Source: Fibrobacteria bacterium
GTDB lineage: Bacteria; Fibrobacterota; Fibrobacteria; UBA11236
DNA: 64,000 nucleotides
Direction: 5' to 3'
NCBI GenBank assembly: GCA_050486505.1
Contig: JBJHDK010000003.1
Span: 8,287 to 72,286 of the forward strand
Shown here: in pieces, positions 2,760 to 63,537 of the stretch
Layout of the letters: the number at the start of each line of letters is the position of its first letter
Position numbering within the stretch: the stretch's first letter is position 1
Program-made: the position numbers and the translations under genes
Notes under the pieces: generated by a model
The model's input: only the letters and a program-made list of their open reading frames with translations
Told to the model about the DNA's origin: nothing
Databases searched by the model: none

Positions 2760-3626
2760 TTACCCCGCTTTAGGAAATCGTTTCTCCAGGTACTCCCGGT
2801 AGGGTGACTTCGGCATGTCGGCGAGAGTCTTGTCGAAGCGGGCGCGGTCGATGAACCCGCGCTCGTATGCGATTTCCTCGAGGCAGGCGATCTTCAGACC
2901 CTGCCTGGCTTCCAGTGTGTAGATGAAGTGGCTGGCCTCGAGCAATGAGGCGTGCGTCCCGGTGTCGAGCCACGCGATGCCGCGGCCCAGCGGGGAGACG
3001 GCGAGCTTTCCGTCGCGCATGTAGGAGAGGTTGAGATCGGTGATCTCCAGTTCCCCGCGCGGCGAGGGGCGCAGCGCTTTTGCGCGCGCGACCACGGTGG
3101 AGTCATACACGTAGAGGCCGGGCACGGCATGGTGCGATTTCGGCTTCGCGGGTTTTTCCTCGATGCCGACGGCCTTTCCGGATGCGTCGAACTCCACCAC
3201 TCCGTAACGCTCGGGATCCTTCACCGGATAGCCGAAGATACGCGCGCCTTCGCGGAACGATGCGATGATGCCTTCGAGATCGAGCTCGCCGTAGAAGATG
3301 TTGTCGCCCAGGATCAAGGTTGCCGGGCTTCCGGCCAGGAACTCTTCACCGAGCAGGAAGGCCTGCGCCAGGCCCTCGGGCTTGGGTTGCACCTTGTAGG
3401 AGAGGTGGATTCCCCATTGGGAACCGTCCCCGAGCAAGGCCTCGAAGCGGGGGGTGTCCTCCGGCGTCGAAATGATCAGGATGTCGCGGATGCCCCCCAG
3501 CATGAGCGTGGACAGGGGGTAGTAGATCATCGGCTTGTCGTACACGGGCTGGAGCTGCTTGCTCGCGACCCGTGACAGGGGATACAACCGGGACCCGGCC
3601 CCCCCGGCAAGGATGATGCCCTTCAC
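2760..3626 (-). CDS. rfbA: Glucose-1-phosphate thymidylyltransferase
   Basis: [18 protein letters not shown]... is the canonical RmlA N-terminus and the fold matches throughout. GTG start at 3626. Confidence 0.9.
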
Positions 3627-4327
3627 GCGTGGCGCCCTTTCTTGTTCCCCTTGCCTGGGGTCCGGAAGGTACGGAAGTTCAGGGGTTGCGGGTCAGGAAG
3701 GCCGAGCGCCGTGCGGATGTCATCGTGCACCTTGGGGATTTCCTGCGTGGCGTCGACCTCGGCGAGCACGCCGACGTCGCGAAAGAAGCGCAGCATGGGC
3801 TCGGTCTTGTCGTGGTAATCCGAAAGGCGCTTGTGGATGGCGTCTGCGTGGTCATCGCTGCGCTGCACCAGAGTGCCTCCGCACACGTCGCAGATGCCAT
3901 CGACCTTGGGGCGGTGACCGATCAGGTTGTAGTCGAGCCCGCAGCGGGAACAGGCGCGCCGGGCGAGCATGCGCTCGGTCACGAGGCTGTCGGGCGCATC
4001 GAGATGGATGACCGCATTGATGTTGTAATTCTCGAAGAGAAACTCGGCCTGCGCGAAGTTGCGTGGATAACCGTCGAGCACGAAGCCGTAATTCCAGTCG
4101 TGCATGGCGAGACGCTCCGAGACCACGCCCGCAACGAGTTCGTCGTCGACCATGCGGCCGCGCGAGATGACGCGGTGGACCTTGGCGGCCAGCTTGGTGT
4201 GGTTGGCGATGTTCCAGCGGAACTGGTCGCCGATCGAAATGTGCACGAAATCGTAGGCCTCGCACAGGAGCTTTGCCTGCGTGCCTTTGCCCACCCCTTG
4301 GATGCCCATGATGATGTACTTGTACAT
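3623..4327 (-). CDS. adk: Adenylate kinase with a zinc-binding lid
   Basis: P-loop [10 protein letters not shown] and a CSRCG...CDVCGG lid. Likely start is MYKYIIMG at 4327. The stop overlaps the rfbA start by 4 nt. Confidence 0.9.
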
Positions 4328-4625: not shown

Positions 4626-6125
4626 ATGCACAAGCACATCGAAGCTCTCCGTAAATCCGCCCGCGAGATCGGCGCGCTGCGGTCCGCCGCCGGCTTGCTC
4701 GGCTGGGACCAGGAAACCTTCATGCCCCCGCACGGCGGAGCGGCGCGCGCCGAGAGCCAGGCCGCCCTGGGCGCGCTCATCCACCGCCTGCTCACGTCCG
4801 ATGCGCATTGGCGTCTCATCGAAGACGCGTCCGCAATGGACCTTGCGCCGCGCGAGCGCGCATTGGTGCGGGAGCTGCGCCGCGATGCAGAGGACGCGCG
4901 CAAGGTTCCGGCGGACCTCGCGGAGGACCTCGCGCGCACGGCCTCGCTGGCGCAACAGGCGTGGTCGAAGGCGCGCGCCGCCGACGGAGGCAAGGGCGCG
5001 CCCGCGGAGTTTCTGCCGTGGCTGCGCAAGATGGTTGCGCTCAAGCGTCGCGAGGCCGAGTGCCTGGCACGCGGCGACTCGGCGTACGATGCGTTGCTCG
5101 ACCAGTTCGAGCCGGGCGCGCGCGTCGCGACGGTGAGCCCCGTGCTCCAAAGCTTGCGCGACGGCCTGGTTCCCCTGCTGAATCGCGTGCTTGCAAAGAG
5201 TCCCCCCGGCTCCCTTTCTGCCGAGCCTTGGGAAGGAAAGGCCTTTCCGCTGGATGCGCAGGCGCGCTACAACGAGCGCCTGCTGCGCGACATGGGGTTT
5301 GATCTCGAATCCGGTCGGCTCGATGCGAGCGCGCATCCTTTCACGCAGGGCATGGCGCCCGGCGACGTGCGTTTGACGACGCGGTATCGCGAGGATGATT
5401 GGCTCAACGCCCCGTTCAGTACTCTGCATGAAGGGGGGCACGGGTTGTACGAGCAAGGGCTTCCGCAAGAAGACTGGGGAACGCCGCTGGGCGAGGCGAC
5501 CTCGCTGGCGATCCATGAGTCTCAGTCGCGCTTCTGGGAGAACCGCGTGGGGCGTTCGCGCGCGTACTGGGAGTTTTGCCTGCCGGTGGCGGGCGAATAT
5601 TTCGGGGGGCTGCTCGCGGGCGCAACGGTGGACGGGGTGCTTGCCCGGGTCAATGCGGTGGAGAGGTCCTTCATCCGCGTGGAGGCGGATGAGATGACAT
5701 ACAACCTCCATGTGCTGCTGCGCTTCCAGCTCGAGGAGGCGATTTTCTCCGGTGCTCTCGAAGTCGAGGGACTATCTGCCGCATGGGATGAAGGAATGGA
5801 GAAGCTCCTGGGCATTCGTCCGCCCGATGCCGCGCGCGGATTTTTGCAGGACGTGCATTGGAGCTGCGGGTTGTTCGGGTACTTTCCGACCTACACGTTG
5901 GGGAACCTGTACGCGGCGCAGTTCGCGGCGGCGATGGAGAGTGATCTCGGTGATCTCGACACGAAGATTAGAGTCGGCGACTTCGCGCCGATGCGGGACT
6001 GGTTGCGCGAAAACATCCATCGGCACGGCCGGGAGTTTTCCGCCGCCGAGCTGTGTCTCCGCGCGACGGGCAAGGAACTTGATGCGTCACATTTTCTGCG
6101 TTATCTGGAAGGGAAGTACCTGTGA
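4626..6125 (+). CDS. Carboxypeptidase Taq-type (M32) metallopeptidase
   Basis: M32 signatures HEGGHGLYEQG (HExxH) and IHESQSRFWEN. Start taken at MHKHIEALRKS. Confidence 0.85.
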   Translation: MHKHIEALRKSAREIGALRSAAGLLGWDQETFMPPHGGAARAESQAALGALIHRLLTSDAHWRLIEDASAMDLAPRERALVRELRRDAEDARKVPADLAEDLARTASLAQQAWSKARAADGGKGAPAEFLPWLRKMVALKRREAECLARGDSAYDALLDQFEPGARVATVSPVLQSLRDGLVPLLNRVLAKSPPGSLSAEPWEGKAFPLDAQARYNERLLRDMGFDLESGRLDASAHPFTQGMAPGDVRLTTRYREDDWLNAPFSTLHEGGHGLYEQGLPQEDWGTPLGEATSLAIHESQSRFWENRVGRSRAYWEFCLPVAGEYFGGLLAGATVDGVLARVNAVERSFIRVEADEMTYNLHVLLRFQLEEAIFSGALEVEGLSAAWDEGMEKLLGIRPPDAARGFLQDVHWSCGLFGYFPTYTLGNLYAAQFAAAMESDLGDLDTKIRVGDFAPMRDWLRENIHRHGREFSAAELCLRATGKELDASHFLRYLEGKYL

Positions 6126-6973: not shown

Positions 6974-6976
6974 TTG

Positions 6977-6998
6977 AGTGACGAGTTACGAGTGAAGA
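6977..6998. repeat. Solo partial copy of the ACGAGTT-type heptamer repeat (shares TGACGAGTTACGA with the element at 10748)
   Basis: A 13-mer identical to the left arm of the 10748..10900 element. Lies between the convergent purU and ABC ATPase genes. Confidence 0.3.
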
Positions 6999-7879
6999 TG
7001 CGTTTCGGGATTTCGTGCAACTTCTCCCCGCTTCTCCATCCTCGGCACCGCATCGAGAAGCGTCCGCGTATACGGATGCTGCGGGTTCGCGAAAAGCTCC
7101 GCCGTCGGGCCTTCCTCGACCACCTTCCCCGCGTTCATCACCAACACCCGGTCCGCGATCGCGCGCACAAGGGACAGGTCGTGCGTGATGAACAACAGCG
7201 CCAGGCCCTCCTCGCGCTTCAGGTCGAGCAACAGGTTCACGATCTGCGCCTGCACCGACACGTCGAGTGCCGAGACCACCTCGTCGCACACGATCAGCTT
7301 CGGCTTGAGCCCCAGCGCGCGGGCGATGCACAGGCGTTGGCGCTGACCTCCCGAGAACGCGTGCGGGAAGCGCCCCAGTGCATCCTCGGGGAGCCCGACG
7401 CGATGCAGCAGTTCCGCCGCGGCGGCCTTCAACCCGGATGCGGGAACCATCTTGTGGGTGCGCAGCGGCTCCGCGAGCAACTCGAAGACAGTCAACCGTG
7501 GGTTGAGCGCCGTGTAGGGATCCTGAAAGATGATCTGGAAGTCGCGGCGGTGCGGCTTCCACGCGGAGGGATTCGTCGTGTCGATGCGCTTCCCCGAAAG
7601 GGTGATGTCTCCGGAGGTGGGCTGGGTCAGTCCCAACAGGGAGAACCCCAAGGTGCTCTTGCCGCAACCTGATTCCCCCACCAATGCCACGATCTCTCCC
7701 GGAAAGATTTCCAGTGACACGCCGTCGACCGCGCGCACGTGATCGACGGTGCGCTGCAGCAACCCGCCCGTGATCGGGAACCAGGTACGGAGGTTCCGTG
7801 CGGACAGCAGAGATCGGGGCGAATGGGTCTTGTTTCCCTCCAAGCTCTTGCCTCCTGTCTCATTGCCGATGTCAGCCAC
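6986..7879 (-). CDS. Peptide/nickel ABC transporter ATP-binding protein (DppF/OppF-like)
   Basis: Walker A GESGCGKST, signature LSGGQRQR, and the C-terminal oligopeptide-transporter domain. Likely GTG start at 7879 behind a GGGGGAA RBS, overlapping the upstream stop (GTGGCTGA). The longest ORF runs to 7912. Confidence 0.8.
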   Translation of the reverse strand: MADIGNETGGKSLEGNKTHSPRSLLSARNLRTWFPITGGLLQRTVDHVRAVDGVSLEIFPGEIVALVGESGCGKSTLGFSLLGLTQPTSGDITLSGKRIDTTNPSAWKPHRRDFQIIFQDPYTALNPRLTVFELLAEPLRTHKMVPASGLKAAAAELLHRVGLPEDALGRFPHAFSGGQRQRLCIARALGLKPKLIVCDEVVSALDVSVQAQIVNLLLDLKREEGLALLFITHDLSLVRAIADRVLVMNAGKVVEEGPTAELFANPQHPYTRTLLDAVPRMEKRGEVARNPETHLHS

Positions 7880-8855
7880 TCGTTCCCCCCTGATACAAAT
7901 GGCACGCCACATGATGCCCGGTGTGCGCCTCCGTCCATGCAGGGTCGGTCGTGCAAGGGTCGAAGACGCGCGGGCAGCGGTCGTGGAAGCGACACCCCGC
8001 GGGATAGCGCCCCGGCGGGGGGACGGATCCGGGAATGGGGCGGGGGATGGCGCCGGTTTCGAGGTTGGGCAGCGCGTCGAGCAGGCCGCGCGCGTACGGA
8101 TGCAGCGGATCCCGCAACAGGTCGAGCGCGGGCCCCGATTCGACGACGCGGCCGGCGTACATCACCGCCGCACGATCTGCGTACTGGGCGACGAGGTTGA
8201 GGTTGTGCGTGATCAGCACGATGCCGGTGCCGGTCTCGCGGCGGAGTTCCGCCAGCAGGTCGAGGATTTGCGCCTGAATGGTCACGTCGAGCGCGGTGGT
8301 CGGCTCGTCGGCGAGGATGAGCTTCGGCTTGAGCAACAGGGCGTGCGCGATGAGCACACGCTGCAGCATGCCGCCCGAGAGCTCGTGGGGGTAGGAGCGC
8401 AGCACGCGGTCGGGGTCGCGGAAGCCCACGCGGTCGAGCAGCTCGCGGATGCGCGTCGCGGGGTCTCCCGCGTGTTTATGGTGCCGGAAGGGGAAGCGCA
8501 GCTGCGTGCGAATGGTCTGCAGGGGGTTCATCGCGGCCGACGGCTCCTGGAAGATCATGGCGATGTCGGCTCCGCGTGTCGCGCGCATCTCGTCGGGCGG
8601 GAGCCGCAGCAGGTCGCGCCCGCGATAGAGCGCGCGGCCCGAGAGCACGACCGTGGAGTTCGCGGGCAGAAGCCGCAGCAGGCCGAGGCAGGTGACGGTT
8701 TTGCCGCATCCCGACTCGCCGACGAGCCCGAAGATCTCGCCTTCCCTGACGTCGAAGGACACGCCGTCGGTCACGGGTGTCACGCGCCCTTCGTCCCGGA
8801 AACCGAGCGAGAGGTTCTCAACACGCAGCAGGGGTTCGTTCGACGCGGCGGGCAT
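7872..8855 (-). CDS. Peptide/nickel ABC transporter ATP-binding protein (DppD/OppD-like)
   Basis: Walker A GESGCGKT, signature LSGGMLQR, and the C-terminal HPYARGLL oligopeptide domain. Confidence 0.8.
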   Translation of the reverse strand: MPAASNEPLLRVENLSLGFRDEGRVTPVTDGVSFDVREGEIFGLVGESGCGKTVTCLGLLRLLPANSTVVLSGRALYRGRDLLRLPPDEMRATRGADIAMIFQEPSAAMNPLQTIRTQLRFPFRHHKHAGDPATRIRELLDRVGFRDPDRVLRSYPHELSGGMLQRVLIAHALLLKPKLILADEPTTALDVTIQAQILDLLAELRRETGTGIVLITHNLNLVAQYADRAAVMYAGRVVESGPALDLLRDPLHPYARGLLDALPNLETGAIPRPIPGSVPPPGRYPAGCRFHDRCPRVFDPCTTDPAWTEAHTGHHVACHLYQGGTSG

Positions 8856-8865
8856 TGTGACCTCG

Positions 8866-8910
8866 AAGGTAGTAAGGGCGACCTGCAGGTCGCCCGTACA
8901 GGGCTACCTT
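8866..8910. repeat. REP-like palindrome copy 2 (GTAAGGGCGACC-TGCA-GGTCGCCCGTAC nested inside AAGGTAG...CTACCTT)
   Basis: Near-perfect 28-nt palindrome with an extended outer inverted repeat. Sits in the divergent promoter region between the ABC ATPase and the IMPase genes. Confidence 0.55.
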
Positions 8911-8916
8911 TACATC

Positions 8917-9759
8917 ATGCCCGCCGCGCCGGTGAACATCTTCCTCGAAACCGCGATCGACGCCGTGCGTGCCGCGGGTGCGGTGGCGCTGCGTCGCCGG
9001 GCCGCGTTGGGTCCCGCACGCTTCAAGGGCGAAAAGGACCTCGTCACCGACGCCGACATCGAATGCGACGGGCTCATCCGCGCGAAGATCCTCGAGCGCT
9101 TCCCCGGCCACGACCTGCTCACCGAAGAAGAAGGCGCGCTCGACCAAGGCAGCGCCTGGCGCTGGCTCGTCGACCCGATCGACGGTACCATCAACTATTC
9201 CCGGGGAATCCCGCTGTGGGGAGTTTCCGTCGGTCTTGCGCACGAGGGGCGCATGCTGTGCGGCGCGATATACCTCCCCGTGTTCGACGAACTCTTCACC
9301 GCCGTCGCGGGCGGCGGAGCCACCCTGAACGGAGAGCCGATCCGGGTGGCCCCCCGGTCCGACCTCTCCACCGCCATCGTGTCGCACGGTGATTTCAACG
9401 TCGGCGCCGACGACAACGCGCGCCGCGACCTCAACGCCGCCAACTTCTGGGGCCGCATGCGCACCGTCTCCGGCGTGCAGCGCGTGAAGTGCCTCGGTTC
9501 CGCAGTGGTCGAGGGCGCTTACGTCGCCTGCGGCCGCATGGACGGCTATTGGATGGGGTATCTCAAGCCCTGGGACGTCGCCGTCACCAGCCTGCTCGTC
9601 ACCGAGGCGGGCGGCCGTGTCACCGACCTTGCCGGCAAGCCGTGGACGCTCGAGTCGCGCACGATCTTGTTCTCCAACGGAACGCTGCACGACGCCTTGC
9701 TCGAAGCGCTGTCGTGGGATCGCAGGAAGTTTCCGGAAACATCGGAAGGGAAGGCATGA
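8917..9759 (+). CDS. suhB: Inositol monophosphatase family protein
   Basis: IMPase motifs DPIDGT and WDVA. ATG at 8917. Confidence 0.8.
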   Translation: MPAAPVNIFLETAIDAVRAAGAVALRRRAALGPARFKGEKDLVTDADIECDGLIRAKILERFPGHDLLTEEEGALDQGSAWRWLVDPIDGTINYSRGIPLWGVSVGLAHEGRMLCGAIYLPVFDELFTAVAGGGATLNGEPIRVAPRSDLSTAIVSHGDFNVGADDNARRDLNAANFWGRMRTVSGVQRVKCLGSAVVEGAYVACGRMDGYWMGYLKPWDVAVTSLLVTEAGGRVTDLAGKPWTLESRTILFSNGTLHDALLEALSWDRRKFPETSEGKA

Positions 9760-10742
9760 TGGGGGCCACCTCCGCAGACGCGGCGTCGTTCGGGTACGTC
9801 GACATCTCGCCCGCCCTGCGCGAGGTGCTCGCGCGCGGCGGCACGCGGGACGCCCCGCTTTCCCTCGCGGGGTCGGCCGGGTCGGGCAGGGCGTACTACC
9901 GCGTGCACGGCACGGGCCTCGTGCTGCTGGTCTCCCCGGACGAGGACGCCGACTTCGGCCGCTTTCTGCGCATCACCCAGTTCTACCGCATGCTGCGCGT
10001 GCCCGTGCCGCGTGTCCACGCCGTGGACGACGCCGCGCGCCAGGTGTTGCTCGAGGACCTGGGAGAACGCCGGCTCTATGACGTCCTCAAGTCCGACCGG
10101 GCCGCGGGCCTCGGGGCCTACCAAAAGGCGCTCGCGATCCTGGCCGACTTGCAGGGGCGCTGCGACCCCTTCCGCGACGAATGTCCCGACATCAAGTCGC
10201 GCGTATTCGACACGTCGCAGTTGCTGTGGGAAACAGGGTATTATCGCGCCCACTATCTTGAAGCTTACCGCGGCTTGCGTCCCGCGCCCGCGATGCAGGA
10301 GGCCTTCGACCGGCTCGCGGCCCGCGTCGATACGCACCCCAAGGTCATCATGCACCGCGACTTCCAGTCGCAAAACCTGATGGTGAAGCCCGATGAATCG
10401 GTGCACGTCATCGATTATCAGGGAAGCCGGCTCGGTTCGATGTTCTACGACGCGGCCTCGCTGTTGCTCGATCCCTACGTGATGCTTGCGGATGATGAAA
10501 TCGAGGGACTTCTGCGCGGCTTTCACGCCGCACGCGGCGGGGGCACGGGGTTTTCGGCGTTCCGCACCGCCTTCCTCGAAGCGGGCCTGCAGCGTGTCAT
10601 GCAGGCGCTCGGCGCGTATTGTTTCCTGTCGCGGGTCAAGGGGCTCGCGGCCTTCGCGGACCACATCCCGGCAGGGGAGGAAAGGCTGCGGTGGCTTGTC
10701 CGGGAAACAGGCGGTGACTGGAAGGCCTTGCTGCCGGATTAA
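9756..10742 (+). CDS. Phosphotransferase (APH/choline-kinase fold), possibly an anomeric sugar kinase
   Basis: Catalytic motif HRDFQSQNLMV and IDYQGS. The ATGATG start overlaps the suhB stop. Confidence 0.7.
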   Translation: MMGATSADAASFGYVDISPALREVLARGGTRDAPLSLAGSAGSGRAYYRVHGTGLVLLVSPDEDADFGRFLRITQFYRMLRVPVPRVHAVDDAARQVLLEDLGERRLYDVLKSDRAAGLGAYQKALAILADLQGRCDPFRDECPDIKSRVFDTSQLLWETGYYRAHYLEAYRGLRPAPAMQEAFDRLAARVDTHPKVIMHRDFQSQNLMVKPDESVHVIDYQGSRLGSMFYDAASLLLDPYVMLADDEIEGLLRGFHAARGGGTGFSAFRTAFLEAGLQRVMQALGAYCFLSRVKGLAAFADHIPAGEERLRWLVRETGGDWKALLPD

Positions 10743-10747
10743 GCCAA

Positions 10748-10900
10748 TGACGAGTTACGAAATACGAATTACGAATTACGAGTTACGAATGACACGAAGG
10801 GCGTTCGAATCTTGGAACCGATGTTCCTGTCCGCCTTATGTCCTGGCGTTTTGATTCGTTCCTTGTTTTCCGTAATTCGTAACTCGTAATTCGTAATTTT
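10748..10900. repeat. MITE-like inverted-repeat element. Arms of 30-45 bp are built from tandem heptamers ACGA(G/A)TT, separated by an AT-rich spacer of about 76 bp
   Basis: Left arm tgacgagttacgaaatacgaattacgaattacgagttacgaatgac. Right arm cgtaattcgtaactcgtaattcgtaatt is its reverse complement. Intergenic, between the kinase and dUTPase genes. Confidence 0.55.
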
Positions 10901-10929
10901 CGCCCCACTCACTTTTCCCCGGATTCCCC

Positions 10930-11388
10930 ATGCCGAACCAAGACAAACTCGACCGCCTTTTTGCACTTCAGTCCGAACTCAATGACCGCATCTTCGCCAA
11001 GAAGGACATCCGCGATGCGGAGGGCAAGGTGCTGACCATGGAAACCCTGATCGCCGAGGCGCGCGCGGGGAGTCCCCTCGGCCCGAACACCAAGGTGAAC
11101 GAATGGCTGGGGAAATACCTGACGGCCCTCGATGACGAGTCGCGCGAGTTGCGCGAAGAGCTGCTGTGGAAGTGGTGGTCGAAGGATCACCTCGACATGC
11201 AGAACATCCGGGTCGAGATCATCGACCAGTTGCATTTCTGGATGTCGATGGCCCTCACCGCCGGGCTCGGGCCCGACGAGGTGTTCGACATCTACATGCA
11301 GAAGAACGCCGTCAATCACGCGCGCCAGGAGAACGACTACGCGCGCGGGAACAAGACCGAGGGCGACAACAAGACGATCCGGACGTGA
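10930..11388 (+). CDS. Dimeric all-alpha dUTP pyrophosphatase (dUTPase_2/MazG-like fold)
   Basis: Pattern LFALQSELNDRI...KWWSKDH...EIIDQLHFWMSMAL resembles dimeric dUTPases. Recognition is from memory, not a search. Confidence 0.55.
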   Translation: MPNQDKLDRLFALQSELNDRIFAKKDIRDAEGKVLTMETLIAEARAGSPLGPNTKVNEWLGKYLTALDDESRELREELLWKWWSKDHLDMQNIRVEIIDQLHFWMSMALTAGLGPDEVFDIYMQKNAVNHARQENDYARGNKTEGDNKTIRT

Positions 11389-26730: not shown

Positions 26731-26750
26731 CAAATCTTTCCCGTGAGTTC

Positions 26751-26785
26751 AAAAAAGGCGACCACTGGTCGCCTTTTTTGTTTTT
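26751..26785 (+). terminator. Rho-independent terminator built on the REP core (A6-GGCGACC-act-GGTCGCC-T6)
   Basis: Perfect 7-bp arms flanked by an A-run and a T-run. Potentially bidirectional. Confidence 0.65.
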
Positions 26786-26964
26786 ATCCGTATCCGCCGC
26801 GATCTTATCAAAACGATCTTTTTATGAAAGAGTGGTCAAGGTTACCCTATATTCGTTAGTAACTTGAGGATATTTAGGTCTAATTAAAGTAAAGTCAAAA
26901 AAATAACCGACTTCAGTTGGTATTTTTTATATTAGGTATGCATTCTTGAACAAAGTTGGGGAAA
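26786..26964 (+). promoter_or_regulatory. Strikingly AT-rich island of about 175 bp upstream of ilvB. Putative promoter/UP region, possibly with an attenuator-like hairpin (ACCGAC-ttca-GTTGGT followed by ATTTTTTAT)
   Basis: Base composition far below the flanking DNA. Contains TTG and TA-rich motifs and a small hairpin with a T-tract. Confidence 0.35.
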
Positions 26965-30701: not shown

Positions 30702-30751
30702 CCCCGGGCAGGCGCCCCTTCAGGATCCCCCCGCATCAGCTCCCCTGTGCC

Positions 30752-30805
30752 CTGGTCCTTGCATCGAAAAAGCCTCCGTGGGGAGGCTTTTTTGATGCAA
30801 GGACC
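30752..30805. terminator. Bidirectional terminator: extended palindrome GGTCCTTGCATC-G-AAAAAGCCTCC-gtgg-GGAGGCTTTTTT-GATGCAAGGACC
   Basis: Hairpin with A and T tracts on both sides, between convergent genes. Confidence 0.6.
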
Positions 30806-30815
30806 AGGTTTCGCT

Positions 30816-37422: not shown

Positions 37423-37483
37423 CCCCTTGTTAAGGGCGACCTCGTCACCCCGGCGAAGGCCGGGGAGGTCGCCCTTGCAGGGG
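37423..37483. repeat. REP-like palindrome copy 3 (CCCCTTG-TTAAGGGCGACCTC-gtcaCCCCGGCgaagGCCGGGGa-GGTCGCCCTT-GCAGGGG), with a half-site GTCGCCCTTAAC at 37515
   Basis: Nested perfect inverted repeats about 60 nt long, between the dsbD-like start and the rhodanese stop. Confidence 0.55.
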
Positions 37484-38687: not shown

Positions 38688-38705
38688 TCCTGCATCCGCA
38701 ACCAA

Positions 38706-38739
38706 CAAAAAACCCTCCGCCTCAGGCGGAGGGTTTTTT
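38706..38739 (+). terminator. Rho-independent terminator (A6-CCCTCCGCC-tca-GGCGGAGGG-T6)
   Basis: Perfect hairpin flanked by A and T tracts after rpsD. Confidence 0.7.
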
Positions 38740-38818
38740 GTTGGGCGATTTCCGGGATCCCCTGCGAAGGCGTGGCGGCGCAGGGTTCCCCCGCGCTTTT
38801 GTCTTCCGGTCGATTCGT

Positions 38819-39274: not shown

Positions 39275-41514
39275 CGTGACAAGTTACGTTCGCGTTCGGA
39301 AACGGGGGGGAGGAATTCGAACAAAACAATTCCCGAACAGCGTCCGCGCCGCGATTCGAGGTAATCCGCGAGGCTTTCGGAGGCGACGCGACCGCGCAGC
39401 TGGCTGGCGTGACGAAGCATCGGGACGCCGCCGCGCGCATCGACGAAACCGGTATGTGTGGCATCGAGACCTTCGCGGTCGGTCAGGAAGGCGATGCCGA
39501 GAAAGCGGTCGCCGAGGGTCCAGTTCCGTGCCAGGCGAAGCGCTTCCTCGTAGGGAAGCTGCCTGATCTCGGCGGTGAGGTCGGGGCCCGTGACGCCCTT
39601 GCCCGCGAGCAGTTGCCTGCGATGGAGCGTCTTGCGGAACACCGTGTCGCCGGGGAGTTCGAGCACGCGGAAGTCGTCGGGGTTGTTGGCGAGCCATTCA
39701 CCGACGAAGTAGTGGTTGCGGTTCTCGTAGCTGACGGTGTCACCACGGTAGCGAAAGGGAATGATCGCGGGTACCAGATCGGCAGCGCGGCGCACCCGCG
39801 CCAGGCCGAGAACGGCTTCCATGTAGGTGACGCAGTCCATGCGCTCCATGTCGACGATCGGCAGCGGATCGACATCGGCGTGGCGCCCCTCGCCGGTGGG
39901 GCCGAGGAAGTAAGGGGTTCCTTCGAGCTCCTTCGAGAAGTGGCGCAGGCGCTCGGCGTACCCGCGCGGGACATCGGGCCGGTTCAGCAACGTATGGGCG
40001 CGCGCGGCTGCAGGGCGTTCCTTGTTGTACCACAGGGCGGTGCGCATCAACAGCGTGTCGAGCAGGTCCGCTGCGGGTGCAGAGGGGCCGGCGAAGTTGT
40101 TCAGAAGCAGGGTGGCCGCCAGGGTGTCGCCATCGAGGGCGAAAACGTATCCGCTGAGGCCGGAGACGCCGTTGAGCGACCCGGTCTTGTAGCGTGCCAT
40201 GCCGCTGCCGGTGAAGCCGCGCAGCCGTGCCCCGGTGGCTCCGTCGAGGCCGGGCTGGGCGAGCGAGGCGATGTAGTCCCCGCCGTCGGGGTGACGGGCC
40301 ATGCGGGCGAGCAGCCCGGTGAGGGCGCCGGCCTGCAGGCGGTTGCGATCCGAAAGGCCGCTGCCGTCGTGAAGTTCGAACGCTCGGGGATCGACGCCCT
40401 GCCGCGCGACGAAGTCCATGGCAGCCGTGATGCCCGCCTTTGCCGTGCCCTCGCCCTTGATCCTCTTGCCGAGATGGCGCACGAGACGCTCCGCATGGAG
40501 GTTCTGGCTGCGTTGGTTCACCTCGTCGATCAGGGAGATCATGGGGGCCGTGGTGAACCGGTACTCTCGCAGGAGGGGAGCCGTGGCCGCGCCGTCCTCC
40601 GCGATGAAGCGGATGCCCGAAGAGTCCAGCGCGGCGAGTAGCGCGCGGCGGAAGTATTCCGGAGGGTTGCGCACGGGAAAGACCCAGGTGCGCGGCGCGG
40701 CTCCCGCACCCACAGTCCCGGTGAGGATGACATCGGACACATCGTCGCGCAGGGTGAGCGTCACGCCGTGGCGCGCGCCCTGCACCGTGCGGGCCTGGTT
40801 CACCACGCGGACGTGGCCCACGTCGGGATCCAGCGCAAAGGCGGCGGGAACACCCGGGCGCTCTCCGGGGCCCACGGTGATTTCGTAGGCGTTGTCGTTG
40901 TACGACAGGGCCGATACCTCGGCACCGTACCACGCATTGAAATGCCGCTCCGGCCAGGCGGCGGGGCGATGCGGTCCTGTGAAGAAGGTGTCGAGCGCGA
41001 CCACGCTCCCCCGTACGGTGTCGATGCCGAGCGCCCGCAGCGAGTCGGCCCAGACGCGCAAGGGTGCGAGAGCGTCCGGGTAAAAGCGTTTCGAAACGTT
41101 GGGGTCGCCGCCGCCGACGGCGCGCAGGGTTCCGTGGAGCGTGCGCCCGCGCAGGGTTCCAGCGACTTCCAGCGTGGTGTATGGGGCCGCGTCCACGGGA
41201 AAGGCCTCGATCGCCGCGGCGGTGATGACGAGCTTGGCCGTGGACGCGGGCACGAAGGGAACGGTGTCGTTCTGCCGCGCCTCGAAACGACCGTGCCGCA
41301 GGGAATACACTGAGACGGCAAGATCTCCGCCGATGCCGGAACGCGCGTGCACTTCGCGAAGTTCCTTCAGCAGCAGGGGGGACGCTTCGCCGTGCCAGCT
41401 GCGCGAGGGGGTGTACTCCGCGTCGCGCGCGCCTTCGGCCCCCCCGGCGGAGGCGCAGGAGGCGAGGACGAGGAGGGAGAGCAGGGGGAGGAGACGGGTG
41501 ACGGGCGCGACCAC
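39271..41514 (-). CDS. dacB: Lipoprotein fusing a D-Ala-D-Ala carboxypeptidase/endopeptidase (PBP4/S13) with a C-terminal DUF1460 (amidase-like) domain
   Basis: S13 motifs (PASTAKL, SGLSDRN, KTGSL) in the N-terminal half. C-terminal about 250 aa resemble DUF1460 (VDMERMDCVTYMEAVLGLA...NHYFVGEW). Proposed GTG start at 41514 with a GGAG RBS gives the lipoprotein signal MVAPVTRLLPLLSLLVLASC. The longest ORF extends to 41709. Confidence 0.7.
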   Translation of the reverse strand: MVAPVTRLLPLLSLLVLASCASAGGAEGARDAEYTPSRSWHGEASPLLLKELREVHARSGIGGDLAVSVYSLRHGRFEARQNDTVPFVPASTAKLVITAAAIEAFPVDAAPYTTLEVAGTLRGRTLHGTLRAVGGGDPNVSKRFYPDALAPLRVWADSLRALGIDTVRGSVVALDTFFTGPHRPAAWPERHFNAWYGAEVSALSYNDNAYEITVGPGERPGVPAAFALDPDVGHVRVVNQARTVQGARHGVTLTLRDDVSDVILTGTVGAGAAPRTWVFPVRNPPEYFRRALLAALDSSGIRFIAEDGAATAPLLREYRFTTAPMISLIDEVNQRSQNLHAERLVRHLGKRIKGEGTAKAGITAAMDFVARQGVDPRAFELHDGSGLSDRNRLQAGALTGLLARMARHPDGGDYIASLAQPGLDGATGARLRGFTGSGMARYKTGSLNGVSGLSGYVFALDGDTLAATLLLNNFAGPSAPAADLLDTLLMRTALWYNKERPAAARAHTLLNRPDVPRGYAERLRHFSKELEGTPYFLGPTGEGRHADVDPLPIVDMERMDCVTYMEAVLGLARVRRAADLVPAIIPFRYRGDTVSYENRNHYFVGEWLANNPDDFRVLELPGDTVFRKTLHRRQLLAGKGVTGPDLTAEIRQLPYEEALRLARNWTLGDRFLGIAFLTDREGLDATHTGFVDARGGVPMLRHASQLRGRVASESLADYLESRRGRCSGIVLFEFLPPVSERERNLSR

Positions 41515-41525
41515 CAGTCTCCGCA

Positions 41526-41547
41526 GGGGCGACCCATGGGTCGCCCC
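41526..41547. repeat. REP-like palindrome copy 4 (GGGGCGACCCATGGGTCGCCCC, a perfect 22-mer)
   Basis: Shares the GGCGACC/GGTCGCC core. Lies in the aroA-dacB intergenic region under the proposed dacB start. Confidence 0.5.
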
Positions 41548-41591
41548 TACAGGACGCCCGTCACCCGTCTGCCACCCACAGCCTCTGCCTT

Positions 41592-51218: not shown

Positions 51219-51306
51219 AATGGACCCGGTGGACCCGATGGACAGCATGGACTTTATGGACAGAAAATGGATGACCGCCTTGTCCATAAAGTCCATGCTG
51301 TCCATC
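51219..51306. repeat. Perfect 26-bp inverted repeat (GATGGACAGCATGGACTTTATGGACA / TGTCCATAAAGTCCATGCTGTCCATC) embedded in a run of 9-bp ATGGAC-type direct repeats
   Basis: Arms at 51237..51262 and 51281..51306 with an 18-nt spacer. The right arm abuts or overlaps the htpG stop codon. The ATGGAC motif recurs about 7 times with a 9-10 nt period. Confidence 0.6.
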
Positions 51307-54598: not shown

Positions 54599-54606
54599 AG
54601 AGAGGA

Positions 54607-54783
54607 CAATGGGGCAATAGAACAATAGAGCAATGCAACAATAGTACGCAGCTCTACATGGTCACTCCTGTGCGCGGTCTGTGGTACCCGTCTTCGGCTG
54701 CGACTTTGTTGTTTCGCTCTTCCGCCTTTCCGTAGCCTTGTCGCTCTATTGTTCTATTGCCTCATTGTTGCATTGTTCTATTG
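54607..54783. repeat. MITE-like inverted-repeat element. Arms of about 40 bp are built from tandem 8-mers CAATAGAA/CAATGCAA, separated by a 97-bp spacer
   Basis: Left caatggggcaatagaacaatagagcaatgcaacaatag. Right ctctattgttctattgcctcattgttgcattgttctattg. Same architecture as the element at 10748. Lies between convergent genes. Confidence 0.55.
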
Positions 54784-56794: not shown

Positions 56795-56817
56795 ATCGAG
56801 AGACACCCAAAAGGAAA

Positions 56818-56845
56818 AGCCCGGGAAACTCCCGGGCTTTTTTTG
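56818..56845 (+). terminator. Rho-independent terminator (AGCCCGGGA-aac-TCCCGGGCT followed by T7)
   Basis: Perfect hairpin plus T-tract. Confidence 0.65.
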
Positions 56846-56860
56846 TCGTGCGATTCTCCC

Positions 56861-61023: not shown

Positions 61024-63537
61024 TCACTTGCCGATGCGGATGCCGGCGAATGCCCCGGGCCAGAGGCTTACGTTGTCGTTGATGGTGCGGAGGTAGGGGA
61101 GGTCGGTCCCGGTGAGGGGGACGTCGGTATTGATGTGCGTCGCAACGTTGTACGAAATGCCGCCGAAGACGGAGAAGATCGGAGCCGCCTTCCAGCCCAG
61201 CGCGACGCGCAGGCGGGTCCATTCGGTGGTCACGTCCCCGTCGTCGAACGAGAACCCCTTGGGTTCGAACAGTGTGCTGTAGAGGAGATCCGGTTCGACG
61301 AAGAGGGGCGTGCCCGGGATCCCGAAATGGATTCCGGTCCCGAACGTGGGAGCGATCAGGGTTTGGTCCGCGAGAGGACGGGTGCCGACCGCCAGGATCG
61401 AATAGACGGAGCGAACCCCCGTCCTCAGGCCCGCGTACGCCGTTCCGGTTTCATCCGCCCAGGATTGACCGTGAAAGGAACCCTTGCGGCTGATGTTGAC
61501 GAGCCCGATCGGGAAACCCGACTCATAGTCGCTCGAGAGATTGATGAGCCCGATCTGGTGCCCTTGCACGGTGCCGGCAAGGTTCAGCACCCCGGCTCCC
61601 TGTACCCCCTGGAGCGATCCGAAGGCCATGTTGAAAACCCCCGAGGCCTGGACACCCTCGACGCCACCCGCGGCATTGAAAACGCCCGCTCCCTGTCCGC
61701 CCTGGACGCTGCCGGCGGCTGCGTTGAAGATTCCCGCTCCCTGTCCGCCCTGGACGCTGCCCGCGGCCAGGTTGAAGATGCCTGCGCCCTGCCCGCCCTG
61801 TACATTTCCGGCCGCCATATTGAAGATTCCTGAACCCTGTCCGCCGTACACATTCCCTGCGGCCATGCTGAAGATCCCCGCGCCCTGCCCGCCGTGGACG
61901 CCTCCCGCAGCCATGTTGAAAATGCCTGCGCCCTGCCCGCCGTGAACCCCCCCGGCCGACATGTTGAAGATTCCCGCGCCTTGGAGACCGCGAAGGCTGT
62001 CGGCGGAGATGTTGAAGATTCCCGAGAGTTGGCCTCCCCTCACGGTGTCGGCGGAGATGTTGAAAACTCCGGAGCCTTGCCATCCCTCGACACCGCCGCC
62101 GGCGATGTTGAAGATTCCCGCGCCCTGGACCCCGCGGACGGATCCGCCTGCGATCCCGAAGACGCCCGAGATTTGCGCCCCTGAAAGTTCCTCGCCCACG
62201 ATGCTGCCGACCTGGTTGAGTTGGAACCCCCGCAGCCCGCCCTCGACGGCATTGATGCCGACGGCGGCCTGGTATCCCTCCAGGTCACCCCGTGTCCGGT
62301 TGAAGAGGAAGGAAAGCTGTCCTCCCCGCCTGTTGGCGTGCGCGTCGGTCGCCAGCAACGCGATCTGGGTGCCGTGCCAGTCGTGCCTTTGCACGTCGTA
62401 AAAAATCGAGGAAGAAAACCCCGGCTCCCCGTCGTCGGGAACGCGCTGAAACTCTCGCCGCGCCGAAGCCGTGCCGCCGCGTGTCACGGTCGGTTCCCCC
62501 GACACGGGACGGAAGGAGGCGGGGGTGAGCTGCGTGGCCTGCCCTTCCGTCAGGGTGACGCGGGCCATGCTCCAGTCGGCGCCGCGCAGCAGGCGCACGC
62601 TGTAGGTTCCCGGCGCGAGACCGATGCGCATTTCGCGGCCTGCGGGTTTGTTCAGCTCGGCCGCGAGCTGGTCGAGGCTGTCGCGCAGGAAGAGACGGCC
62701 GTGCAGCGCCTCCGGACGCTCGAGGAAGGCCGATGCCTGGCGCAGGTCGGTGAGCACGATGTCGCCGCTGCCGCTGAGCTGGATGTCGTAGGCGGCATGC
62801 TGCGGGCCTCCCCGCGTTCTCTCGGTGCGCGCCAGTGTCTCGTGGTAGGCGAACTGGTAGGCCTCGTGCAGGGTCACGCGCCCGTCGCGCGAGGCGTCGG
62901 CGGCGCCGCGCAATCCCGTGTTCAGCGCATGGGTGAAGAACGATCCGCCCACGCGGTCGCTTTCCTGCGCCACCTCGCTCTCCGAGGAGGAGGTGAGGAT
63001 CGCGTAGCCTTCAGAGCGTGTGGACTGGTCCACGAGAAACGCGGGAACGTGCTGGCCGCCCTTGATGCGCGTCAGCGCGCCCGAGGCGCAGGCATCCACC
63101 ACGGCGATGCGCACGTCGGCATCGAGCCCGTTCATGCCGTCGCGGAAGGACCGGTACGAAAACCCTTCCCTGCCCAGCAGCAGGCCGCGCTCGTCGGCGT
63201 GCCCGGAGTAATACACGATGGCCTCCACGCGTTCTCCCGCGCGCCTCAGCGACGCGGATTGCCTGCGCAGGTCGGAGAAGGCGCGGGCGATGCCTGCGCT
63301 GTCGGGGTCGAGCAGCACCACCGCATCGGCCGGATCGAGCCCGCCGAGCTCCACCAAGGTGCGTTTGAACGCGGCGGCATCGGATCCGGCGTAGAGCAAA
63401 CGCTCACGTCCCTGACCCCCATCGTGGTGCCCGATCAACAGGGCGACGCGCCGGGTGTTGCCGTCACCGGTGAACGCCGGGGAGGGGGTGGCGCTCCAGG
63501 CCAGCGCGCATGCGAGAAACAGGGCGAGGTGTTTCAT
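61024..63537 (-). CDS. Caspase-like (peptidase C14) domain protein with about 15 tandem 16-aa Gly-rich repeats and a C-terminal putative membrane/beta-barrel domain
   Basis: Signal peptide. Caspase His/Cys dyad context (IVYYSGHADE, AVVDACASG). Repeat GAGIFNMAAGxVxGGQ about 15 times. Confidence 0.7.
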   Translation of the reverse strand: MKHLALFLACALAWSATPSPAFTGDGNTRRVALLIGHHDGGQGRERLLYAGSDAAAFKRTLVELGGLDPADAVVLLDPDSAGIARAFSDLRRQSASLRRAGERVEAIVYYSGHADERGLLLGREGFSYRSFRDGMNGLDADVRIAVVDACASGALTRIKGGQHVPAFLVDQSTRSEGYAILTSSSESEVAQESDRVGGSFFTHALNTGLRGAADASRDGRVTLHEAYQFAYHETLARTERTRGGPQHAAYDIQLSGSGDIVLTDLRQASAFLERPEALHGRLFLRDSLDQLAAELNKPAGREMRIGLAPGTYSVRLLRGADWSMARVTLTEGQATQLTPASFRPVSGEPTVTRGGTASARREFQRVPDDGEPGFSSSIFYDVQRHDWHGTQIALLATDAHANRRGGQLSFLFNRTRGDLEGYQAAVGINAVEGGLRGFQLNQVGSIVGEELSGAQISGVFGIAGGSVRGVQGAGIFNIAGGGVEGWQGSGVFNISADTVRGGQLSGIFNISADSLRGLQGAGIFNMSAGGVHGGQGAGIFNMAAGGVHGGQGAGIFSMAAGNVYGGQGSGIFNMAAGNVQGGQGAGIFNLAAGSVQGGQGAGIFNAAAGSVQGGQGAGVFNAAGGVEGVQASGVFNMAFGSLQGVQGAGVLNLAGTVQGHQIGLINLSSDYESGFPIGLVNISRKGSFHGQSWADETGTAYAGLRTGVRSVYSILAVGTRPLADQTLIAPTFGTGIHFGIPGTPLFVEPDLLYSTLFEPKGFSFDDGDVTTEWTRLRVALGWKAAPIFSVFGGISYNVATHINTDVPLTGTDLPYLRTINDNVSLWPGAFAGIRIGK
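61534..62265 (-). repeat. In-frame 48-bp tandem coding repeats (about 15 copies) encoding the GxGIFN 16-aa repeat
   Basis: CTGGACGCTGCCGGCGGCTGCGTTGAAGATTCCCGCTCCCTGTCCGCC-type units recur with 48-nt periodicity. Spurious ORFs appear on other frames here. Confidence 0.6.

Follow-up and report, generated by a model that had tools for sequence, protein, structure and literature searches.

The 187-nt gap between two co-oriented Fibrobacterota genes, a kinase gene and a dUTPase gene, is filled by an inverted pair of heptanucleotide simple sequence repeat (SSR) arrays placed around a unique spacer. The layout recurs at three orthologous positions in relatives, at 61-82% protein identity of the flanking kinase or HtpG, with the repeat unit replaced each time, which argues that it is the architecture and not the sequence that matters or persists. 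The whole stretch of DNA analysed, 64 kb in length, is termed the window; its elements, arms and spacers carry no strand assignment unless one is given.

The upstream gene (9756-10742, plus strand) encodes an APH-family (aminoglycoside/choline kinase, AmgK-like) phosphotransferase of 328 residues, identical to P0001, and the downstream gene (10930-11388, plus strand) encodes a dimeric dUTPase (dUTPase_2) of 152 residues. A preliminary description had presented the element as non-coding and intergenic, with inverted arms made of tandem heptamers. Both statements agree with the present data: the element is flanked by the kinase stop (10742) and the dUTPase ATG (10930), and its arms are recovered by direct reading, by Tandem Repeats Finder and by an inverted-repeat search. 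The left (5') arm begins 3 nt past the kinase stop codon. Tandem Repeats Finder places it at 10746-10790, with period 7 (AATTACG/ACGARTT, 6.4 copies) or period 14 (3.2 copies), and by direct reading it is tgacgagttacgaaatacgaattacgaattacgagttacgaatgac at 10748-10793; it has a GC content of 33% and a purine fraction of 0.62. The right (3') arm, at 10871-10898, comprises 4.0 copies of CGTAATT (period 7, 90% matches, Tandem Repeats Finder) and reads cgtaattcgtaactcgtaattcgtaatt, with 32% GC and a purine fraction of 0.43. Its unit is the reverse complement of the left-arm unit, and the single G variant (ACGAGTT/AACTCGT) is likewise present in it. The best inverted-repeat register covers 27 nt at 96% complementarity (10767-10793 with 10872-10898), other registers are as long as 45 nt at 78%, and the arms are almost wholly Watson-Crick paired. 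Permuting the order of the units, as a measure of mirroring between the arms beyond their consensus, gave p values of 0.27-0.5 in a test without power. With at most one mismatch, TTACGARTTACGA is matched nine times in the window against 0.03 expected, and eight of these matches fall within the element, whose heptamer unit occurs at one locus only within the 64 kb.

The unique spacer (10791-10870) is 80 nt long and holds a small inner hairpin, GGAAC-CGAT-GTTCC, at 10814-10827. Its GC content is 50%, so that the AT-rich part of the element is the arms and not, as had been supposed, the spacer; TTACGAA and TTCGTAA, formerly called palindromic, are mutual reverse complements, neither of which is itself a palindrome. 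The whole intergenic region has 46% GC against 63.5% for the window, which puts it, though not uniquely, towards the low-GC end of the window's intergenic regions. A pyrimidine-rich leader of 31 nt (10899-10929, plus strand) extends from the right arm to the dUTPase ATG and contains the motif ttttccccgga, which is common to two relatives that carry no array at this position (L171 and L228).

Three further hairpins with tandem-repeat arms are present in the window, each built on its own unit. The second element (54606-54783) sits between the convergent DUF502 and cation-efflux genes and comprises five octamers CAATAGAA, a spacer of ~100 nt and five octamers TTCTATTG, folding at -72.5 kcal/mol (z -5.8). 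The third (51220-51306) is made of 9-mers ATGGACNNN that form a perfect stem of 26 bp whose arms are 18 nt apart (-71 kcal/mol, z -9.0); it starts at the htpG stop codon (minus strand), and its array runs on for five units, to 25 nt ahead of the EamA start codon. The fourth element (41485-41577) is shorter and consists of 7-mers, its arms GACGGGTGACGGGCG and CGCCCGTCACCCGTC (two heptamers) enclosing the inner palindrome GGGGCGACCCATGGGTCGCCCC; the minus-strand 3' arm probably extends into the start of a lipoprotein gene. The kinase-dUTPase element is one member of a class, common in this lineage, of intergenic hairpins whose arms are short tandem repeats of period 6-9.

Comparison with Fibrobacterota relatives was made at the orthologous intergenic regions. 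Between the kinase and dUTPase genes, heptamer arrays were found in relatives at 61-70% protein identity, and no relative carrying this locus at closer than ~70% (kinase) was found. In locus L133 the region reads CAGCTTA CAGCTGA CAGC, followed after 63 nt by (GCTGTCA)4.4, and in L134 ACGTTAG ACGTTGG, a spacer and (CCAACTT)4, while L135 and L129 display only (CCAGTAC)3.9 and (CTACCGT)5, respectively. The same region in L171, L218, L220 and L228 contains no array; half of the syntenic relatives thus lack arrays at this locus, which indicates that the element is dispensable. Between htpG and EamA, L214 contains (AAATCAG)4.4 ... (ATTTCTG)4.7, the 3' arm of which abuts the EamA ATG, and after the cation-efflux gene L215 contains (AAAGATG)4.6 ... 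(TTTCATC)4.4. Further orthologous-site arrays are (GGTAGTG)7 and (GTGACGTT)4.8 in L214 and GGTTTGGGTTTGG ... CCCAAACCCAAACC in L216. Overall, arrays occupy 7-8 of the 14 orthologous regions, compared with 12 of 94 (~13%) for intergenic regions in general, these being raw counts corrected neither for phylogenetic relatedness nor for intergenic length. A relative with 93% identity (JGI sample 3300073325) was left out of the comparison because its contigs break off within the dUTPase gene and it is non-syntenic downstream of htpG.

In nearly all cases, as read by eye, the 5' arm begins 0-11 nt past a stop codon, and over 13 pairs the purine fraction is at least 0.50 in every 5' arm and below 0.5 in 12 of the 13 3' arms. 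The unit is common to neighbouring elements 0.5-4 kb apart and not to distant ones. Thus, L129 carries at least five CTACCGT arrays within 3.3 kb, among them one ahead of each gene of a divergent pair, in the same sense and 14-19 nt before the ATG, and L215 carries two AGACTTC pairs. A common regulon, with arrays of one unit around the ABC transporter, inositol-phosphatase, kinase and dUTPase cluster as L129 might suggest, was considered and rejected, since the corresponding divergent region of the window (8856-8917) holds no arrays. Between distant relatives both array length and unit differ. Copy-number polymorphism was not seen in the arrays of two relatives sampled 4 and 6 times in metagenomic samples, and slippage is therefore not fast.

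Arrays of (TTACGAA)n are also found well outside Fibrobacterota. Among the matches listed, the layout (TTACGAA)n...(TTCGTAA)n occurs in Acidobacteriota, Chloroflexota, Bacteroidota and Akkermansia, and only 9 of 157 arrays in other genomes lie inside long open reading frames. Orientation relative to genes is biased among these same matches: in non-cyanobacterial arrays the sense strand reads TTACGAA after a stop codon (28:11) and TTCGTAA before a start codon (21:6), and each of the 16 inverted pairs outside Nostoc reads 5'-(TTACGAA)n..(TTCGTAA)n-3'. This is the orientation of the kinase-dUTPase element. The spacers of the cross-phylum look-alikes are unrelated. Chitinophaga solisilvae contains two paralogous copies that differ by compensatory changes (L062, L100). 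No paper containing TTACGAATTACGAA or one of its rotations as a literal string was recovered from the literature.

Folding in both orientations gave a stem of about -60 kcal/mol with a z-score near -6 on either strand (-59.8 kcal/mol, z -5.96 for plus; -60.7 kcal/mol, z -6.48 for minus), and none of 200 shuffles was as stable in either case. The earlier suggestion of a structured RNA therefore stands as far as a generic long stem-loop is concerned. It finds no further support in the sequence, which is not conserved, or in RNA families: Rfam 15 at gathering thresholds gave zero matches over the whole window, and E-value mode over 10650-11000 gave only chance-level matches to eukaryotic families. 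Selection acting on one strand was assessed from G-U pairs and from sense and antisense energies in 14 elements. Nine of these lie between tandem genes, and folding was favoured on the sense strand in three, on the antisense strand in five and on neither in one; this lack of asymmetry provides no direct sign of RNA-level selection.

Signals for transcription were scanned over 10500-11100, where no sigma-70 promoter consensus was detected, no terminator consensus was detected at the element, and a single chance-level terminator call fell inside the dUTPase gene. The element resembles a bidirectional intrinsic terminator in its site at a gene end (between convergent genes as well, for other elements), in an A-rich 5' and a T-rich 3' side, and in a Watson-Crick stem on both strands. 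It differs in that its stem is far longer and AT-rich, loops or spacers of these elements measure 18-100 nt (80 nt here), and the tail, TTTTCGCC, offers only TTTT after the stem rather than a proper T-run. Canonical terminators with a GC stem and a T-run are present elsewhere in the window (30751-30808, 38702-38744 and 56798-56858), so the organism does not depend on such hairpins for termination.

Among known systems, the element belongs to the heptanucleotide "long SSR" (LSSR) class, its units being arranged head to tail above chance (6.4 + 4.0 copies) in an intergenic location. As summarised in PMC4679880 and PMC4692102, LSSRs are tandem arrays of 5-11-nt units, mostly intergenic and of scattered phylogenetic distribution, the heptanucleotide class being the most abundant in many prokaryotes, with polymerase slippage proposed as its cause (Mrazek 2007). 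LSSRs (Mrazek, Guo and Shah 2007) and the cyanobacterial STRR heptamers thus share tandem units with the kinase-dUTPase element; in those summaries they appear as single arrays, and neither hairpin pairing nor unit turnover at conserved positions is part of the account. Heptanucleotide long SSRs in inverted pairs are the closest described class, a simple-sequence-repeat reading that the preliminary description had not considered. Such pairs are known from Xanthomonas, where 70-75 convergent inverted GGGAATC array pairs per genome are able to form stem-loops (Rehm et al. 2015, PMC4692102). The arrays are intergenic, contain 2 to ~26 heptamers, and mostly keep their type (pair or single) between two related species while their lengths vary (PMC4692102). 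The Fibrobacterota element is likewise an intergenic inverted array pair capable of forming a stem-loop. In contrast, Xanthomonas uses a single G-rich, quadruplex-prone unit genome-wide, whereas the present element is AT-rich with no quadruplex possible, the window holds four units (periods 7, 8 and 9), and the orthologous sites of relatives carry unrelated units. TAACTGA direct repeats offer a parallel, since the same heptamer array is found in widely separated phyla (Beggiatoaceae, Cyanobacteria and Bacteroidetes; MacGregor 2015, PMC4679880). They show a preferred orientation and precede start codons by anything from a few nt to tens of nt; at such positions they have been proposed as sites of post-transcriptional regulation, and indels between strains occur in 7-nt steps (PMC4679880). 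These sets are direct in 169 cases and indirect in one, with one unit per genome (PMC4679880), unlike the inverted pair described here.

The preliminary description had assigned the element to a dispersed repeat family, which the data do not support, and had taken it for a MITE-like mobile element, which is very unlikely. In this last reading the heptamer arrays would be the terminal inverted repeats of a non-autonomous MITE or of a foldback- or REPIN-like element. The element is indeed small and non-coding with terminal inverted repeats, fills its gap from 3 nt past a stop codon and has arms far poorer in GC (32-33%) than the host (63.5%). Inverted arms built of short tandem repeats are also a property of the Drosophila FB elements, foldback arms being internally repetitive. 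The occurrence of the inverted layout in several phyla, among the matches listed, and the paralogous Chitinophaga solisilvae copies point the same way. REPINs provide a comparable layout, namely two short repeats in inverted orientation (here 27-45 nt long) that enclose a spacer of tens of nt (here ~80), extragenic and predicted to form a hairpin in single-stranded DNA or mRNA (Bertels and Rainey 2011, PMC3116915). However, REPINs form genome-wide families in which 16- to 25-mers are near-identical and linked to a RAYT transposase (PMC3116915), whereas the arms here are tandem arrays whose units differ between loci, four elements in 64 kb using four different units, and neither a family nor a RAYT gene was seen in the sequences analysed. 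Of the roughly 52 genes of the window, the nine that adjoin its elements encode no transposase, and in the sequences analysed no multi-copy family or cognate transposase of MITE or foldback type was seen. Target-site duplication is not convincing: with flanks taaGCC/AATGACG ... CGTAATTTTC/GCCCC, only a 3-nt GCC match is observed, which belongs to the palindrome and lies within the ambiguity of the boundary. A search for the 80-nt spacer (blastn-short, window and ~230 fetched loci) gave no second copy, and the interiors of the cross-phylum look-alikes are not shared. The MITE reading is not supported by these results, and even in distant relatives the orthologous sites already carry arrays of other units.

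Dispersal had been claimed from a solo arm copy, a 13-mer put at 6977-6989. The 13-mer common to the left arm, TGACGAGTTACGA, is in fact located at 6979-6991. The surrounding sequence (6976-6995, plus strand) comprises 2.9 weak heptamers (GAGTGAC GAGTTAC GAGTGAA) and runs into the 3' end of a minus-strand ABC-ATPase gene (6986-7912). In 21% of 200 second-order Markov randomisations, the element shared an exact match of at least 13 nt with sequence elsewhere in the window, which rules out the solo copy as evidence of dispersal; the site cannot be told apart from chance, though nearby elements in relatives do share units.

An array of operators for a protein reading direct and inverted heptads, as had been proposed for a TTACGAA/TTCGTAA regulator, is highly improbable. 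Ribbon-helix-helix proteins, such as the omega repressor of pSM19035, are the model for heptad operator arrays, and direct and inverted heptads do flank a possible promoter region here. Moreover, nearby arrays share units in relatives (CTACCGT in L129, AGACTTC in L215). Against this, the model presupposes one shared heptad and a cognate regulator, whereas no regulator gene is adjacent, and the 64 kb of this one genome contain at least four unit types of three periods. The three further elements of the same layout, on unrelated units of periods 8, 9 and 7, make a single regulator unlikely. The unit also differs in every relative at the kinase-dUTPase locus, and the sites between convergent genes, at which some elements are found, contain no promoter. 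More generally, replacement of the unit at kept positions counts against sequence-specific binders in this lineage.

A cis-regulatory leader is only a little less doubtful, and still distinctly improbable. The right array would be an unstructured, pyrimidine-rich landing pad for ribosome or S1 in the dUTPase 5' leader, sequestered by the left inverted copy only in transcripts that read through from the kinase gene; the stem could also be melted by a ribosome that terminates 3 nt ahead of it, which would couple translation of both genes. The right array is the more persistent one, L135 and L129 having only this array, 14-30 nt upstream of the ATG. The same-sense arrays before both divergent genes of L129, the L214 arm abutting the EamA ATG and the regulatory role proposed for TAACTGA before start codons (PMC4679880) agree with it. 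It is at odds with the elements between convergent genes (54606-54783, L215 and L216), which have no start codon to serve, with the lack of a sigma-70 promoter prediction over 10500-11100 and with folding that shows no sense-strand bias.

The remaining alternative, a neutral or selfish mutational by-product, deserves more weight, although we consider it rather unlikely. Slippage and template-switch inverted duplication would generate arrays of no benefit to the cell, which persist or regrow in tolerant intergenic regions. Absence of arrays from half of the syntenic relatives, a unit free of sequence constraint, the lack of a sense-strand folding preference and near-pure Watson-Crick arms, as expected from templated copying, are all consistent with such an origin, and polymerase slippage has been proposed as the cause of the heptamer excess in the literature as summarised in PMC4679880. 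Strand-symmetric slippage does not, however, predict the purine/pyrimidine polarity of the arms (13/13), or the gene-relative orientation bias of (TTACGAA)n across phyla among the matches listed. The tight placement of 5' arms against stop codons and the 7-8 of 14 orthologous regions with arrays, against a background of ~13%, also speak against it.

The explanation that best accommodates these observations, and to which we give about even chances, is that slippage together with copying between the arms maintains a sequence-independent hairpin that serves as a transcript-end or insulator structure at the gene boundary. Slipped-strand mispairing would add and remove 7-nt units, and tandem-array arms could pair in more than one register. 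Changes may then be carried from arm to arm by out-of-register hairpins and intrastrand template switching, so that the arms would stay Watson-Crick complementary while the unit drifts. Such copying would explain why the orthologous regions of relatives display the same layout with unrelated units, and we infer that the element arose and persists by slippage and arm-to-arm copying. The proposed function is the least certain part. Acting through structure and not through sequence, a stem of 27-45 bp, extending from 3 nt past the kinase stop to 31 nt before the dUTPase start, would be met by transcripts entering from the kinase gene. The A/purine-rich 5' arm and U/pyrimidine-rich 3' arm have the polarity of bidirectional terminators, and the hairpin might serve as a transcript end or insulator by termination, as a barrier to 3' exonucleases, or through processing by a double-strand RNase that would part the two messages.

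A stronger version, which we regard as unlikely, is that intergenic repeat-armed hairpins are actively maintained as a system in Fibrobacterota, and probably in further phyla as well. A dedicated process would write or re-copy short repeats symmetrically into gene-boundary palindromes, candidates being local templated copying and a foldback-type element that targets gene ends. This possibility derives from the retention of position over deep divergence with the unit wholly replaced, from units shared at 0.5-4 kb but not farther, and from the strict polarity of the arms, purine-rich 5' and pyrimidine-rich 3'. If true, the prokaryotic heptamer excess would be the footprint of a dedicated process and not of generic polymerase slippage.

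The locus and its relatives provide a comparative handle on heptanucleotide repeats. Repeat-armed hairpins can be mistaken for MITEs, and they also break short-read assemblies. The whole element was recovered in an independent Logan assembly of run SRR31311414 (L122), in which unitigs begin or stop in the right arm, the behaviour expected of an inverted repeat in a de Bruijn graph.

The element at 10746-10898 is real. Its sequence, read directly, agrees with the preliminary description, and it separates an APH-family, AmgK-like kinase gene (9756-10742) from a dimeric dUTPase gene (10930-11388); homologues are, by source naming, from Fibrobacteria or Fibrobacterota. The left arm (10746-10790), which begins 3 nt downstream of the kinase stop codon, comprises 6.4 heptamer copies of consensus AATTACG or, alternatively, 3.2 copies of the 14-mer AATTACGAGTTACG, while the right arm (10871-10898), ending 31 nt before the dUTPase ATG, comprises 4.0 copies of CGTAATT (Tandem Repeats Finder). 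Nine copies of TTACGARTTACGA with no more than one mismatch are present in the window, where 0.03 would be expected, and eight of these fall inside the element. As proposed, the arms are reverse complements, with a best register of 27 nt at 96% complementarity; because they are tandem arrays, further registers also pair, up to 45 nt at 78%. Folding gave ~-60 kcal/mol on each strand (z -6.0 and -6.5). The AT-rich part, previously placed in the spacer, is the arms (32-33% GC, compared with 50% for the 80-nt spacer and 63.5% for the window). No Rfam family matched the element, and promoter and terminator scans called neither a sigma-70 promoter nor an intrinsic terminator there. The complete element was also recovered from run SRR31311414 in the independent Logan assembly, and its sequence is therefore not one assembler's artefact; the right arm is where the unitigs of that run end.

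The window contains three further intergenic hairpins with short tandem-repeat arms, the unit being different in each. The hairpin at 54606-54783, flanked by the DUF502 and cation-efflux genes in convergent orientation, displays five tandem octamers per arm (CAATAGAA / TTCTATTG) around a spacer of ~100 nt (-72.5 kcal/mol, z -5.8), and two alternative registers are each ~95% complementary. On the minus strand, the hairpin at 51220-51306 begins at the stop codon of htpG. Its arms, of the 9-mer ATGGACNNN, form a 26-bp perfect stem (z -9.0); the stem stays perfect even at the variable NNN positions, and the array runs on for five units, to 25 nt before the EamA ATG. In a shorter hairpin at 41485-41577, an inner palindrome is enclosed by arms of two heptamers each (GACGGGTGACGGGCG / CGCCCGTCACCCGTC), and the 3' arm (minus strand) seems to overlap the GTG start and signal peptide of a lipoprotein gene. 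Ordinary terminators with a GC stem and T-run are found at 30751-30808, 38702-38744 and 56798-56858.

The layout recurs at orthologous sites with complete turnover of the unit, which goes beyond the literature consulted. Eight syntenic kinase-dUTPase intergenic regions were compared in Fibrobacterota loci fetched from other genomes or assemblies (L-handles), where the kinases of the nearest relatives with this locus are only 61-71% identical. L133 carries the inverted pair CAGCTTA CAGCTGA CAGC ... (GCTGTCA)4.4 and L134 a degenerate pair, ACGTTAG ACGTTGG ... (CCAACTT)4; L135 and L129 carry single arrays only, (CCAGTAC)3.9 and (CTACCGT)5, respectively, and arrays are absent from this region of L171, L218, L220 and L228. 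A ninth relative, L123, has another downstream gene and keeps a short version of the unit, ATTACGAATT ... CGTGATTCGTGATT..AATTCGCAATC. The pattern is repeated at the orthologous sites of two other window elements. Between htpG and EamA, L214 contains (AAATCAG)4.4 ... (ATTTCTG)4.7, ending at the ATG; after the cation-efflux gene, L215 contains (AAAGATG)4.6 ... (TTTCATC)4.4, L214 (GGTAGTG)7 plus (GTGACGTT)4.8, and L216 GGTTTGGGTTTGG ... CCCAAACCCAAACC. Downstream of htpG, L215 (10992-11115) displays a long hairpin that pairs imperfectly and lacks tandem repeats (-62 kcal/mol), with arms of ~45-55 nt by our reading. This site thus keeps a hairpin, with tandem arms in the window and L214 and non-tandem ones in L215. 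In total, arrays occupy 7-8 of 14 orthologous intergenic regions, where the background for intergenic regions of these loci is 12 of 94; this gives a nominal binomial probability of ~1e-3 by our estimate, which ignores shared ancestry and intergenic length.

Two further features, local unit sharing and arm polarity, also go beyond the literature consulted. Sharing of a unit between arrays is confined to neighbouring ones: in L129 at least five CTACCGT / ACGGTAG arrays lie within 3.3 kb (1932-2040, 3024-3160, 5190-5224), each gene of a divergent pair having its own CTACCGT array 14-19 nt before its ATG, and in L215 two AGACTTC pairs lie one on each side of a gene. In L129, a TATTTTTTGYGTTC-like sequence, which from its sequence might be a Bacteroidetes-type -7 promoter box, lies 5-12 nt upstream of three CTACCGT arrays, and two arrays are followed by CTATCTTTCC..ATG. 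By our reading, nearly every 5' arm lies close behind a stop codon, starting 0-11 nt downstream of it. Across 13 array pairs from the window, L129, L133, L134 and L214-L216, the purine fraction of the 5' arm is at least 0.50 in all 13 and the 3' arm is pyrimidine-rich in 12. This polarity (5' purine- or A-rich, 3' pyrimidine- or T-rich), identical when read from either strand, corresponds to the A-tract/T-tract arrangement of bidirectional terminators. No systematic difference was seen between sense and antisense folding energies, and repeatedly sampled relatives showed no copy-number polymorphism.

Scanning one genome per species for (TTACGAR)3 revealed arrays at 120 or more loci in at least 10 phyla, the matches listed including Nostocales, Bacteroidota, Acidobacteriota, Chloroflexota, Planctomycetota, Akkermansia, Ignavibacteria, Firmicutes and a CPR bacterium (Candidatus Shapirobacteria), among others. 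Since ~2,300 heptamer necklaces are possible and array-rich genomes are numerous, such a number of matches to one unit, by our estimate, needs no special explanation. Among the matches listed, many arrays adjoin arrays of other heptamers, and 20 inverted pairs lie within 400 nt, with unrelated spacers. Non-cyanobacterial arrays in this set read, on the sense strand, TTACGAA after a stop codon (28:11) and TTCGTAA before a start codon (21:6), the orientation of the window element, and all 16 non-Nostoc inverted pairs listed are 5'-(TTACGAA)n..(TTCGTAA)n-3'; the cyanobacterial arrays listed display the opposite bias (12:30 and 11:5). Chitinophaga solisilvae stands out, having two paralogous nested hairpins (L062:1591-1732; L100:2901-3041 and 3956-4083) with outer (TTACGAA)n / (TTCGTAA)n arms, inner arms of other ~12-nt repeats, and compensatory differences in both arms of the inner stems.

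The element fits best among heptanucleotide simple-sequence repeat (SSR) arrays, as an inverted pair of these and a Fibrobacterota member of a described class. As cited in PMC4679880 and PMC4692102, Mrazek et al. 2007 found that in many prokaryotes heptanucleotide repeats outnumber all other long SSRs and proposed polymerase slippage as their cause. Xanthomonas genomes contain ~185 GGGAATC arrays (PMC4692102); TAACTGA arrays occur in Beggiatoaceae, Cyanobacteria and Bacteroidetes, in most cases a short distance before a start codon (PMC4679880); and in a Nostoc study heptamer arrays had modest effects on promoter reporters, with no mechanism found. REPINs share the doublet-hairpin layout but, unlike the element, form genome-wide families linked to RAYT transposases (PMC3116915). 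The non-autonomous mobile element (MITE) suggested earlier is not supported, as the flanks have no convincing target-site duplication and neither the window nor any of ~230 fetched loci contains another copy of the spacer. The 13-mer previously taken as a solo arm copy of a dispersed family lies at 6979-6991, two bases from its reported position, overlapping an ABC-ATPase gene at its end; in 21% of second-order Markov randomisations the element shares an exact match of at least 13 nt with the remainder of the window, and the 13-mer therefore carries no weight. An array of regulator sites fails on the diversity of repeat units, since the occurrence of four units and three periods within 64 kb argues against a single sequence-specific binding protein.

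Most likely, slippage and templated copying from arm to arm would keep up a hairpin independent of its sequence at the gene boundary. An origin by these two processes is a reasonable inference; that the hairpin might serve as a transcript-end or insulator structure is a guess made from position and polarity. That the element is a neutral by-product is a serious rival reading.

In the window, the palindrome GGCGACC-N3-4-GGTCGCC has three intergenic copies (8877-8894, 26757-26773, 41528-41545; also 37434-37474) against 0.05 expected and resembles a family of short REP-like hairpins; at two sites L133 has a counterpart, GGGCGAAT..ATTCGCCC. Of the window's intergenic regions, 26731-26955 (225 nt, 35% GC) has the lowest GC; it contains no repeats and has a canonical terminator, after which AT-rich sequence leads up to the next gene. 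A long minus-strand ORF (61024-63537) contains, at 61655-62127, a tandem repeat with a period of 48 (9.2 copies, 74% matches; periods of 96 and 144 are also reported), which presumably encodes a repetitive protein domain.
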